From Chiloscyllium plagiosum (taxonomy: Eukaryota), in assembly GCF_004010195.1 (NCBI RefSeq), contig NC_057718.1, positions 72,990,854 through 73,054,853 of the forward strand: DNA of 64,000 nucleotides. Reading direction: 5' to 3'. Positions 40,446-47,149 of the stretch are shown here, in pieces. The notes under the pieces were generated by a model. It saw only the letters and a program-made list of their open reading frames with translations, did not search any database and was not told the DNA's origin. Position numbers and translations under genes: made by a program. How positions within the stretch are numbered: the first letter of the stretch is position 1; each line of letters begins with the position of its first letter.

Positions 40446-40451
40446 AGTGAC

Positions 40452-42775
40452 TAGGAGAAAGTGAGGACTCCAGATTCTGGAGATCAGAGTCAAACATGTG
40501 GTGCTGGAAAAGCACAGCAGGATAGGCAGCAGCCAAGGAACAGGAGAACCGACCTTCCGGGCATAAGCCCTTCATCAGGGATTGTGGGCTGGGTGTTGGA
40601 GAAGGGGACTGAAAGATAAGTGGGAGGGGTGGAAGAGGTAGCTGATAAAGCGATAGGTAGATGCAGGTGGGGGTGATGATCTGTCTGAGCAGAGGGTGGA
40701 GTGGATAGTCAGGAAGGAAGATGGACAGGTAGGACAGTTCAAAAAGGATGGTGCTGAGTTGGAGGGTTGGATCTGGTTAAATCGATGTTGATGCGATGTG
40801 GTTGGAGGGTCCAAAGTCAGAAAATGAGGCATTCTTCCTCCAGATGTCAGATGACTAGGATTTGGTAATGGAGGCAGCCCAAAAGTTGCATGTCCTTGAT
40901 GGAGTAGAAGGCAGAGGTGAAGTGAAGTGATGTGCCACAAGTGGGGAGGTTGTTTGGTGAGTTTTATTCAGAGAGGTTCTTTACAATGTTCCTCGAGTTG
41001 ACGTCCAATTTCCCTAGCATACAGAAGACTAGATCAAGAGCAATTGACACAGCAGATGAGGTAGGAGAAAGTGAGGACTGCAGATGCTGGAGACCAGAGT
41101 TGAAAAGCGTGGTGCTGGAAAACACAGCAGGCCAGGCAGCATCCGAAGAGCAGGAGAATGAGGCTGGTGTGCCAAGCGAGCTGAGTTAAAAAGGTGGGGT
41201 GGGGGTGAGGCAAGGAGGGGCACTGGGAATACGATAGGTGGAAGGAGGTGAGGGTGAGGGTGATAGGCCAGAGAGGGGGTGGTCGCAGAGAGGTCAGGAA
41301 GATGATTGCAAGTCAAGAGAGTGGTGCTGAATCCAGGGGTTGGGACTGAGATAAGGTGGGGGGAGGGGAAATGAGGAAGCTGCAGAAATCGACATTCATC
41401 CAGTGTGGTTAGAGGGTTCCTAGGTGGAAGATGAAGCGCTCTTCCTCCAGGCGTTGTGTGGCCAGGGTCTGGCGATGGAGGCGGCTAAGGACCTGCATGT
41501 CCTTGGCGGAGTGGGAGGGGGAGTTAAAAGTGTTCAGCAAAGGGGCGGTTGATGCAGGTGTCCCAGAGGTGTTCCCTGAAACATTCCACAAGTAGGGCGG
41601 CCCGTCTCCCCAATGTAGAGGAGACCACATCGGGTGCAGCGGATACAGTAAAAGTTGTATGTGGAGGTGCAGGTGAATTTGCGACGGATATGGAAGGATC
41701 CATTGGGGCCTTGGATGGAGGTGAGGGGGGAGGTGTGGGCACAAGTTTTACACTTCTTGCAGTTGCAGGGGAAGGTGCCGGGAATGGAGGTTGGGTTGGT
41801 GGGAGGTGTGGACCTGAGGGAGTCACGGAGGGAATGATCTCTCCGGAACGCTGATAGGGAAATATATCCCTGGTGGTGGGGTCTGTTTGGGAGGTGGCAG
41901 AAATAACGAAGGATGATACGATGTATCCGGAGGTTGGTGGGGTGGAAGGCGAGGACCAGTGGGATTCTGTCCTGGGGGCGATTGGAGGGGCGGGGTTCAA
42001 GGCCAGAGGTGCAGGAAGTGGAGGAGAACATCATCGACCATGTTGGAGGGGAAATTGCGGTCTTTGAAGGAGGCCATTTGGGTTGTGCGGTAGTGGAATT
42101 GGTCCTCCTGGGTAGATGAGATGTTTGGATATGTAAGGATCCTTTGGGGCTTGGATGGAGAGGAGTGGGAATCAAGTATGGGCACAGGCTTTACACCTTT
42201 TGTGGTGGCAAGGGAAGGCATTGGAAGTGGAGGGTGGGTTGGTGGAGGGCATGTACCTAATGAAGGAGTTGCAGAGGGAATGGTCTCTGCAGAATGCTGA
42301 TGGGGTGGGAAGGGAAATATCTCTCTGGTAACAGGGTCTGACAGTAGGTGACAGAAATAGCGGAAGATGGTGGTGGGGTGGAAGGTGAGGACCGGTGGGA
42401 GATTCCATCCTTGTCGCAGGTAGATGGATGGGCTTCAAGGACAGAGGTGCACTAAGTTGAGGTAGAGATGTACTGGAGGGCATTATTGATCATGTGGGGA
42501 GGTGCAATCCAGATAGCTGTCAAAGAGTTGGTGGGTTTGAAGTAGATATCCACGTTGAGTTGGTCACCAGAAATGGAGATCGCGGGGTCCAAGAAGGGGA
42601 GGGATATGTCACAGATGGTCTCAGTGAACTGGAGGTCAAGTGGAAGGTGTTTGTGAAGCTGATGAACTGTTCAACTTAGTCACGGGAGCACAAAGTGGCT
42701 CCGATACACACAGTCATCAACATAGTGGAGGAAAAGGTGGGGAATAGTGCCAGTGTAACTACAGAAGATGGACTG
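40452..42775 (-). mobile_element. Neptune-type Penelope-like element (outer, older copy)
   Basis: Terminus ggagaaagtgaggac...gatgctgg-type; AFCRDHSLCNS, FPCHHKRCKACAH; RT-thumb-like sequence at 42490-42775. Confidence 0.82.
41061..42113 (-). mobile_element. Neptune-type PLE (inner, younger copy) with Cys-rich linker and GIY-YIG
   Basis: ORF 41534-42175: RIPLVLAFHP, AFRRDHSLRDSL, GTFPCNCKKCKTCAH, FYCIRCTRCGLLYIGETGR. Flanked by agatgag at 41054-41060 and 42114-42120. Confidence 0.92.
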
Positions 42776-43723: not shown

Positions 43724-44044
43724 TTAGATTAGATTAGATTAGATACAGTGTGGAAATAGGCCCTTCGGCCCAACAAGTCCACACTGACCCGCTGAAGCAT
43801 AACCCACCCATTCCCGTACATTTATCCCTTTACCTAACACGACGGGCAATTTTAGCATGGCCAATTCACCTGACCTGCACATCTTTGGACTGTGGGAGGA
43901 AACCGGAGCACCCGGAGGAAACCCACGCAGACACGGGGAGAACGTGCAAACTCCACACAGTCAGTCAGTCGCCTGAGGTGGGAATTGAACCCGGATCTCT
44001 GGCGCTGAGGCAGCAGTGCTAACCACTGTGCCACCGTGCCGCCC
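43724..44044 (-). mobile_element. Young HE1-like V-SINE
   Basis: Full architecture with (TCTAA)n tail. Confidence 0.96.
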
Positions 44045-45140
44045 ACTTGGTCAAGCAAAAGGAAGCATATGTCAGGTTTAGACAGCCCATGGACTGAGTA
44101 AATCCCTAGAAGTGCATAAAGGCAGGAGGAGTATACTTCAGAGGGCAAAAAGGGGACACAAGATAGCTTGTAGGCAAACAGGGTTACAGAGAATCCAAAG
44201 GGATTCTCCAAATACATTAAGGACAAATGGGTAACTAGGGAGAGAATAAGACCCCTTAAAAGATCAATAATGTCACGTATGTGGAACTGCAGGAGATGGG
44301 GGAAAGATATTAAATGAGTATTTTACATCAGTGTGTTTGCTGTGGAAGATATGGAAGACAGACAACATGGGGAAACAAATAGCAACATCTTGAAAAATGT
44401 CCAGATTACAGAGATGGCGGTGTTGGATAACTTAAAACAAAGGTGGATAAATCCCCAGGACCAGTCCAGATGTATCTTACAACTCTGTGGAAGCTGGGCC
44501 CCTTGCTGAGACATCTGTATCAACAGCCACAGGTGAGGTGTTGGAGAGACTAGAGGTTGGCTAACATGGTGGCACTATTTAAGAAAAGTTGTAAGGAAAA
44601 GGCGGGGAACAACAGACTTTGCGAACCTGATATCAGTGGAGGGCACGTTGTTGGAGAGAATTCCAAGGAACACTATTTGCATGTTTTTGCAAAGGCAAAG
44701 ACTGATTAGGAATAGTCAACATGGTTTTGTGCATGGGAAATCATGTCTCACTATTTCTTCAAAAAACTCAATCAAGTTAATGAACAGGACTGAAGAGGGC
44801 ACAGCAATGGGCGTGATCTAGAAGTACTTCAGGAAGGCATTCAACAAGATTCCACACGGTAGACTGGTTAGCAAGATTAGATCACATGGAATACGGAACT
44901 CTCTCAAAAAGGTAGAAAACAGACAGTGGTGGTGGAAGGCTGCTATTCAAACTGGAGGCCAATGACCAATGGAGTGCCACAAGTAGCAGTGCTGGGGTCA
45001 CTGCTTTTCGTCATTTATATAAATGATTTGGACGAGAACATCAGAGGTATAGTTACTAAGTTTGCAGATGACACAAAAACTGGAAGTGTATGGACAGCAA
45101 AGAAAGTTACCTCCGAATACAACAGAATCTTGATCAGATG

Positions 45141-45754
45141 AGTAAATGCTGAAAAAGCACAGCAGGTCTGGCAGCATCCAAGAAGCAGGAGAATCGACGT
45201 TTTGGGCATAAGCCCTTCTTCAGGAATGAAGAAGGTGTGCCAAGCAGGCTAAGATAAAAGGTAGGGAGGAGGGACTTGGGGGAGGGGCGTTGGGAATGCG
45301 ATAGGTGGAAGGAGGTTAAGGTGTGGGTGATAGGCCGGAGAGGAGGTGGGGCGGAGAGGTCGGGATGATGATTGCAGGTCAAGGCGGCAGTGCTGAGTCT
45401 GAGGATTGGGACTGGGAATTCATACACTAAACAAACTTCAGTCCCAATCCTCGGACTCAGCACCACCTTCTTGACCTGCAATCTTCTTCCCAATGTCTCC
45501 GCCCCACCCCCTCTCCGGCCTATCACCCTCACCTAATCTCCTTCCACCTATCGCATTCCCAACGCCCCTCCCCCAAGTCCCTCCTCCCTCCCTTTTATCT
45601 TAGCCTGCTTGGCACACCTTCCTCATTCCTGAAGAAGGGCTTATGCCCGAAACATCGATTCTCCTGCTACTTGGATGCTGCCTGACCTGCTGCGCTTTTC
45701 CAGCAACACATGTTTCAGCTCTGATCTCCAGCATCTGCAGTCCTCACTTTCTCC
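45141..45754. mobile_element. Fold-back PLE-derived element with 6-bp TSD and a hammerhead motif in each arm
   Basis: Arms 45147-45414 and 45439-45705 are near-perfect inverted repeats. cagatg is duplicated at 45135-45140 and 45755-45760. Host CR1 continues across the element. Confidence 0.93.
45629..45656 (+). ncRNA. Minimal PLE-type hammerhead ribozyme motif (one substitution in stem III)
   Basis: CTGAAGA-A-GGGC-TTAT-GCCC-GAAA-CA-TC; the opposite arm supplies CG at the stem III position. Confidence 0.7.
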
Positions 45755-47149
45755 CAGATGGGTTAAAGGGCTGAGGAGTGGCAGATGGAATTAAATTTAG
45801 GTAAATGTGGGGTATTTTGGTACGGCAAATTAAAGCAGGACATATACACTTAATGGTAAGATCCTGGGGAGTGTTGCTCAGAGGCCTTGGAGTCCAGGCT
45901 CATAGTGGAATTTTAGGTCGAGAGGACTGTTTTTTTTAAAAAAAAAAGTGTTTGGTAAGCTTGCCTTTATTGGTCACAGTATTGAGTACTGGAGTTGGGA
46001 GGTCATGTTTGCAGCTGTATAGAACATTAGTTAGGCTACCTTTGAAATACTGTGTGCAATTCTTGTTTCCCTGCTATAGGAAGGATATTGTGAAACTTGA
46101 GGGTTCAGAAAATGTTCAAGGATGTTGGAAGGTTTGAGCTATAGGGAGAGGTTGAATACTCCAGGGCTATTCTCCCTGGAGCATTAGCAGCTGAGGAGTG
46201 ACCTTACAGAGGTTTATAAAATAATGAGGGGCATAGATAGGGGAAAACAAAGTTGTTTCTTTAGGGTGGGGGTTTCCAAAATTAGAGCACTTAGGTTTAA
46301 GATGGAGGAGAAAGATATAAAAGGGACCCAAGGGGCAACATTTTCATGCAGAGAATGGGGTGTATGGCATGAGCTGCTGGAGGAAGTGATGGAGGGTGAT
46401 ACAATTACAGCATTTAAAATGCACTGGGATGGGTATTATGAATATGAAGGGTTGAGAGATAATCAGCCAAATGCTGGCAAATGGGGCAAAAGTAATGTAG
46501 GATCTCTGTTCGGCATGGACAAGTTGGACTGAAGGGTCTGTTTCCGTGCTGCATAGCTCCATGACTAACTCTATGAACGGAGACTCGTATGGGTGTAATG
46601 ACCCCCCCCCCCCTCCATACAATACTATTTTGTGATTCAAAGAATTTACACCCAAAGTATTGAACTGTTTTTAGAGGCTGATGGATCTGGTGTTAATTTA
46701 AAATTTAATTCCATATTTAATTAAGTACATTCACTCTTCTCATGCTTTCTAACACTGACATATGAAGGCAGTAAGATATCTATTTTCAGTGGGCTTTTGA
46801 GCTCATTTCAAGAATCAAAACTCTGTAGATAAAAAGGGAATCTGAACATGTAATGCTAACAGTCCACTCACAGGAATTAAGGAAATTGAATTACTAAGAG
46901 TCTAAATGGGAGTAAGCCTCGCTACACCATTCCACAAGATTATGGCAGATCCCTCCAAGACTCAACTCATCTTTCATGTTCGCTCCTCAATAACACAAAT
47001 AAATCTACTCATGCAGGGCTATGCCAAGCCTTGGTCAGGTCTGCCCACTCAATGCTTGCACTGAAATCTTTGTGCTATATTAATCCGTTCAACTGTGATT
47101 GTCGTCACTCAGCTCGAGAAGGAGACTGTACATACATGGTTCCTGACCA

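Follow-up and report, generated by a model that had tools for sequence, protein, structure and literature searches.

A fold-back of a Penelope-like element 3′ end with mutated hammerhead motifs in Chiloscyllium plagiosum, probably a single-copy product of reverse transcription

A 614-base insert in the genome of Chiloscyllium plagiosum carries a hammerhead ribozyme motif on each of two inverted arms and raises the question of whether such a structure is a member of a self-propagating, retrozyme-like family or a by-product of reverse transcription. The insert lies in a stretch of 64,000 nucleotides (contig NC_057718.1, positions 72,990,854 to 73,054,853), hereafter the window. Our analysis strongly favors the second reading: the insert is very probably a single-copy, one-tailed fold-back formed from the 3′-terminal part (pLTR) of a Penelope-like element (PLE), with a 21-nt loop from the ORF of the element; it likely arose in one target-primed reverse transcription event and has been decaying since.

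The layout of the insert is given in Table 1, where pLTR positions are counted from the canonical tail end (45754) as 0, with minus values upstream and plus values after the tail end. The inverted arms at 45147-45414 and 45439-45705, which are separated by 24 nt, share 91.8% identity over 256 aligned columns, and a folding comparison of the two counted 21 mismatches and 1 gap. An earlier note, made from the sequence of the window, had described a 614-bp insert flanked by a target-site duplication (TSD), with two inverted arms of ~268 bp. Both arms could be located; the right side, however, runs 49 nt further than noted, to 45754, and includes a PLE tail. The hexamer that borders the insert on either side stands once at the insertion point in 14 other copies of the host LINE site (with its last base changed in 1 of the 14), and therefore its repetition is a genuine target-site duplication. 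The length of 6 bp is probably an underestimate, since 11 of 14 bases agree between 45135-45148 and 45755-45768 and sibling fold-backs carry duplications of 8-16 bp, with 14-16 bp in 9 of the 14 mapped; given this longer duplication, the insert would measure ~606 bp. At -47 to -49, the end of the left arm falls 10-15 nt short of where tail-less arms usually stop, and the border between this arm and the duplication is ambiguous. We take the interrupted host LINE to be a CR1; its coding stretch matched RVT_1 in Pfam at E=0.1, below the cut-off. Just upstream of this LINE fragment, a short and, judged by eye, presumably SINE-like insertion is located at ~43740-44045 (-).

Table 1. Features of the insert and of its host site, in window coordinates
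Feature	Positions	Strand	Remarks
Host: decayed LINE reverse-transcriptase coding stretch	44983-45134	+	interrupted by the insert, resumes after 45760; based on 14 uninterrupted sites and translation
Left target-site duplication	45135-45140	+	6 bp exact; probably extends, decayed, to 45148
Inverted arm, pLTR without tail	45147-45414	-	spans about -315 to -49
Hammerhead motif, minimal type I, G12>A at 45203	45196-45223	-	CpG transition
Loop	45415-45438	+	45416-45436 derives, in sense, from the N-terminal part of the PLE ORF; 1-2 nt unassigned per junction
Direct arm, 5′-truncated PLE 3′ end (pLTR)	45439-45754	+	-315 to canonical end 0
Hammerhead motif, minimal type I, G16.2>A at 45654	45629-45656	+	CpG transition; ACGU palindrome broken
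PLE tail, ~34 bp	45721-45754	+	right arm only; same one-arm pattern in sibling fold-backs
Right target-site duplication	45755-45760	+	probably to 45768

Judged by its sequence context, each arm represents the 3′ terminus (pLTR) of an abundant PLE, because the sequence upstream of the pLTR in natural long copies is the end of an ORF with reverse-transcriptase-like and GIY-YIG-like stretches. Stop-free fragments of these copies matched RVT_1 (E=2e-5) and GIY-YIG (E=0.003) in Pfam, both below the curated cut-offs, and YIGET and Cys/His motifs are visible in translated PLE copies. Arms and loop map to the natural long copies L111, L112 and L114, the first of which contains a tandem pLTR-ORF-pLTR unit of ~3.35 kb. 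Furthermore, 7 of 29 translated PLE segments, many of them broken, have a C-X4-C-XX-C linker before the nuclease; a linker of this kind (C-X2-5-C-XX-C between RT and EN) is a Neptune/Nematis trait according to PMC8557442, and Neptune would be no more than a candidate clade here. The window itself also harbors an older, 5′-truncated copy of the same PLE at 41054-42775 (-), of ~1.7 kb, in which the tail is present and the hammerhead region is deleted, as well as a more decayed 3′ end at 40450-40924 (-), which holds a third, older match to the hammerhead pattern at 40553-40578. In four copies (L039, L112, L114 and L119), an ATG in the loop of hammerhead stem II opens a frame that runs through the tail; the long ORF is in another frame and has its first Met ~40 nt past the tail end.

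The loop had been regarded as unrelated to the arms. With 86 nt around it as a query, the window alone gave a full match among the best 40 of 159 candidates, and the other 39 covered the arm part only; the spacer was likewise absent from all 29 non-self loci fetched, most of which run upstream into one common PLE sequence. Searched by itself with up to 2 mismatches allowed, the spacer 21-mer (45416-45436) matches the genome 960 times, versus 17 for a reversed control, and the context of these matches is the part of the same PLE that encodes the N terminus. L114 has the 21-mer at +444 to +464 (20 of 21 bases identical), and in L111 it starts 438 nt past the tail end; it is in sense orientation like the right arm. 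The spacer shows no similarity to the arms, as stated, but originates from the ORF of their own element, and therefore the whole insert is PLE sequence. The description as PLE-derived, non-coding and TSD-flanked agrees with our data in that the arms are pLTR with a one-sided tail and a duplication surrounds the insert.

The hammerhead motifs are a feature of the PLE family. The core pattern was found at 45198-45223 (-) and 45629-45654 (+) with 1 mismatch each and in 0 of 100 shuffles. Both lesions are at CpG sites and differ between the arms, G12>A at 45203 and G16.2>A at 45654, as had been read from the sequence before; the proposed consensus, a minimal hammerhead with a palindromic ACGU, exists in the family, where 145 of 293 aligned copies have kept the full core and the palindrome. 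An intact minimal type I hammerhead, with CUGANGA and GAAA boxes, stem II, a palindromic 15.2-16.2 and NUH, is accordingly present in those copies and in neither arm of the insert; one natural copy, L051, matches the intact motif on both of its arms. G12 is the general base of the hammerhead, and the plus arm has lost the ACGU palindrome that a dimer would require. Stem I of the family, as read from the alignment columns, is weak, with two pairs, a U-U and then one pair. Since G12>A is seen in 32 of 293 family copies compared to 33 of 293 at a non-core CpG, the decay of the hammerheads looks neutral.

Each strand of the insert has a single sense motif, and in a transcript the antisense arm would come first. 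In folding predictions of the full rod, stem II has a probability of 1e-15 (plus) and 1e-13 (minus), and opening of the core would cost 39.8 and 35.6 kcal/mol, respectively, whereas stem II forms at 0.94-1.0 in isolated arms; the hammerheads are thus predicted to be inaccessible in transcripts that span the whole insert. The differences between the arms comprise 5 G-U on the plus and 8 on the minus strand and 8 transversions (p=0.58), with no compensatory change among them and no G-U bias. An Rfam scan of 44000-47000 gave 14 matches, 0 of them at the gathering score and none to a hammerhead family; matches to microRNAs reflect the long hairpin only. Three DNA sequencing runs cover the right arm very deeply and leave the loop uncovered, a gap which is uninformative on presence. 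A 63-nt contig of one run (X7) corresponds to 45735-45797 without differences and reaches only 20 letters to the left of the junction, fewer than the 31 required for a call. One RNA run had 0 reads on the stretch, which is uninformative on expression.

Fold-backs of this kind are common in the genome. An exact pattern for two hammerhead ends placed head-to-head at a distance of 10-40 nt matched 1,464 loci (control 0), with mostly different loops among 50 listed loci, and in 60 stretches taken at round coordinates (564,826 non-N bases) 19 of 64 pLTR clusters carry a head-to-head pair; in 4 of the 19 the loop exceeds 150 nt, and these could be insertions that are nested or separate. A very rough extrapolation from 19 per 565 kb would give ~100,000 head-to-head PLE ends genome-wide. 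PLE copies end either at 0 (45754) or at about -32 to -37, the latter being where most tail-less arms of sibling fold-backs stop, and the tail is the stretch between these two sites. Of 34 fold-back rows compared, including two for this insert, 30 carry the tail on one arm only, as do all 14 mapped sibling fold-backs, and in 33 the 5′ ends of the two arms are within 12 nt of each other. Moreover, the arms are discordant at three subfamily-diagnostic sites in 1 of 33, 2 of 33 and 0 of 34 rows, where 16.3, 14.7 and 11.1 would be expected if they were independent. At the level of sequence, this comparison establishes that both arms of the family fold-backs stem from one template. At one locus, L320 (C32:38228244), the arms differ at a subfamily-diagnostic loop base, which could reflect a later mutation or a rare two-template event.

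These observations bear on the idea that the hairpin was formed later at the DNA level, either by an inverted duplication or by two adjacent separate insertions. The arms of the insert are indeed less similar to each other (91.8%) than to their nearest sibling L100 (95.7% and 93.5%). However, these identities are explained by independent decay after insertion (7 and 15 private changes, p=0.13), a single duplication encloses both arms, which stop at the same base, and 30 of 34 rows show the same combination of a one-ended tail and template-concordant arms. We therefore regard a DNA-level origin as the least probable of the alternatives considered here.

The reverse transcription reading can be described as a series of steps. 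The GIY-YIG nuclease of the PLE would have introduced nicks into the LINE DNA, staggered by about 14-15 nt. Reverse transcriptase would then have started at the tail end, copied ~315 nt of the pLTR and jumped onto the element's own ORF RNA, of which ~21 nt were presumably copied. The second arm may stem from a snap-back of the cDNA or from renewed priming on the same RNA by the other target strand, with a stop near the second start site; the data fit snap-back and same-RNA twin priming equally. Repair would have closed the gaps, followed by neutral decay. The hammerheads would have been passengers of the pLTR, both of them hit later by CpG decay.

Traces consistent with template jumps are also seen elsewhere in the family. 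The 5′ ends of pLTRs pile up near -128 (equivalent to 45625-45628 in the window), 1-4 nt before the hammerhead core. The context at this position is initiator-like, and transcription of the PLE RNA may begin at about -128. With probes at +76, +246, +431 and +1586, pieces of the ORF were seen joined straight to a downstream pLTR end in 22 of 29, 9 of 29, 4 of 29 and 3 of 29 loci, respectively, and these joins mostly restart near -128. Such circularly permuted ORF-to-pLTR products would fit template jumping. The first-look candidates for the four ORF probes, which are not copy numbers, fall with distance from the tail (925, 688, 426 and 77). Across L124-L152, L154-L182, L183-L212 and L214-L242, pieces of the ORF 5′ region stop at scattered positions and are followed by a pLTR end, often with an inverted piece upstream. 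ORF-derived pieces were found in 2 of 17 other loops of at least 11 nt that had not been selected for this property (L059 and L283). The ORF stretch of the loop had come under suspicion as a preferred jump site from 4 of 19 loci with the spacer beside pLTR pieces, a sample selected on the spacer, and was rejected as such since breakpoints do not pile up at +444 to +464. A narrow literature search found no account of PLE fold-back loops that contain ORF pieces, nor of junctions that had been re-copied.

Has this junction spread? Exact-pattern scans covered the whole 3.56-Gb assembly, which has N stretches inside some long fold-backs. The left-junction pattern matched itself and 1 further site at two mismatches (control 2), the right-junction pattern itself and 7 further sites at two mismatches (control 1), and none of these eight two-mismatch matches (0 of 8) has the arms. 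A pattern scan of the assembly for fold-backs near the same arm position revealed 8 loci, none other with the loop of this insert; a second mid-arm head-to-head pattern was present at 3 loci with 3 different loops and at 0 in the opposite orientation. Copies with the same spacer and breakpoints and different TSDs, which the earlier note had proposed to look for, are thus absent from the assembly as it stands, although siblings could be hidden because of the N stretches inside long fold-backs.

Two recurrent structures were considered as propagating units and rejected. A short junction that recurs among the 50 listed fold-backs has 8 exact copies; because these fall into two loop subfamilies, independent origin is equally likely. 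A complex fold-back at L119-L122, with four copies of about 88-93% identity, represents a segmental duplication because kilobases of flanking sequence are common to all four loci.

A third case is different. An identical fold-back junction, in which an inverted arm to -332 is joined to a direct arm from -353, is located on three chromosomes, at L303 (C1:72515738), L304 (C5:71877178) and L308 (C31:25577267), and has exactly three copies at up to 1 mismatch. The flanks of the three loci are unrelated. L304 and L308 have duplications of 16 bp and 15 bp, respectively, and carry the tail on opposite arms, while L303 has no clear duplication; L303 and L304 include N stretches. Moreover, all three share a 2-nt insertion that is absent from 83 other loci covering the site. 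The likeliest reading of these sequences is re-insertion of an RNA spanning the junction, which needs no ribozyme activity; gene conversion is an alternative, albeit a less likely one. Fold-back junctions can thus probably be re-copied, if rarely, and one-off origin is no rule for the whole family because this junction stands in three copies. Whether the PLE protein occasionally re-copies fold-back junctions with fresh ends, giving rise to small non-coding families, while loops and ORF-to-pLTR joins record template jumps, is in our judgment evenly balanced.

For the insert in the window, two rival readings were considered. One is that the insert is itself a re-copy, made by the PLE protein without involvement of a ribozyme, of an older fold-back junction whose source is lost or unassembled. 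The three-copy junction suggests that such a route probably exists, and gaps in long fold-backs hide some loci; however, a second copy is absent from the exact-pattern scans of the whole assembly, and the two arms have just 1 variant in common that departs from the column majority, in a column that is polymorphic. We consider this origin highly unlikely, and would say the same of the insert having propagated since. The other is the self-propagating, retrozyme-like family of the earlier note, a non-autonomous fold-back family whose rod RNA would be processed by the hammerheads and re-inserted by the PLE protein. It can draw on the PLE tail and duplication of the insert and on the three-locus junction, according to which re-copying probably happens in the PLE family. 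It is opposed by the lack of a sibling with this spacer and these breakpoints in the assembly, by the sole sense hammerhead of each strand, which is mutated and predicted to be buried in paired structure by 36-40 kcal/mol, by the lack of compensatory changes between the arms, and by the rarity of recurrent junctions, of which the short one chosen fits independent origin. Membership of the insert in such a family is to our mind a very faint prospect, even slightly more so than a re-copied junction; for the PLE family at large, a weak version of the idea holds up through the three-copy junction. A one-off reverse transcription event is the reading we retain.

The layout of the insert is in line with what has been reported for EN+ PLEs. 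Their insertion units, as outlined in PMC3846280 and PMC8557442, comprise a 5′-truncated copy, an adjacent inverted copy, a tail of 30-40 bp at one end and a short TSD; the portion of PMC8557442 on this point presents an inverted pLTR with tail and TSD as typical, and self-priming and template jumps have already been proposed for PLE inverted pLTRs in the corresponding section of PMC3846280. The insert combines a PLE match, an inverted 5′-truncated pLTR copy placed head-to-head, a tail of 30-40 bp at one end and a TSD. In contrast to the units outlined there, it is reduced to two pLTR pieces, and its loop is a 21-nt piece of the element's own ORF in place of a palindrome or overlap. The duplications, mostly 14-16 bp in the family here, are longer than the 8-10 bp of the rotifer examples.

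The hammerheads also have counterparts. Metazoan PLE pLTRs, in the account of PMC4209133 as far as it concerns us here, contain pairs of minimal hammerheads on opposite strands, spaced ~100-700 bp, along with many solitary motifs associated with truncated PLEs. Our motifs are similar in having no loop 3, a palindromic 15.2-16.2 and an extra base before stem II, and are 406 bp apart; they deviate from the family motif of that account in the mutation of both motifs of this copy and in the weak stem I of the family. In vitro work on the Poseidon PLE of Anolis, in the outline of PMC11167929, revealed two internal reverse transcription start sites that delimit the tail and showed that both target strands are cut and extended; the hammerhead is located near the ORF start, and its cleavage is dispensable for insertion in vitro. 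The family here resembles Poseidon in the two end sites delimiting the tail and differs in the C-X4-C-XX-C linker of several natural copies. Non-LTR retrozymes, as characterized in the main lines of PMC7229834 and bioRxiv 10.64898/2026.07.22.740005, are head-to-tail tandems with at least 2 same-strand hammerheads that release circular monomers. Like these, the insert is non-coding, with a ~300-bp unit related to the PLE pLTR and a type I hammerhead; unlike them, it is head-to-head and single-copy with one damaged motif per strand. Tandem units of the same polarity are absent from the insert, and no dispersed copies were found in the assembly.

Overall, the insert is most likely an ordinary by-product of reverse transcription and no new self-spreading ribozyme element. 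Its layout is already described in PMC3846280, PMC8557442 and PMC4209133, and as one of very roughly 100,000 head-to-head PLE ends it matters little as a single locus. The fold-back population, however, is useful for the open question of how inverted PLE insertions form: it reveals that the arms come from one template, that there are two start sites (0 and about -34), that most cDNAs end near -128 and that jumps onto other RNA of the element are possible. Moreover, the three-copy junction, if it represents true re-insertion, shows how non-autonomous fold-back derivatives could begin.
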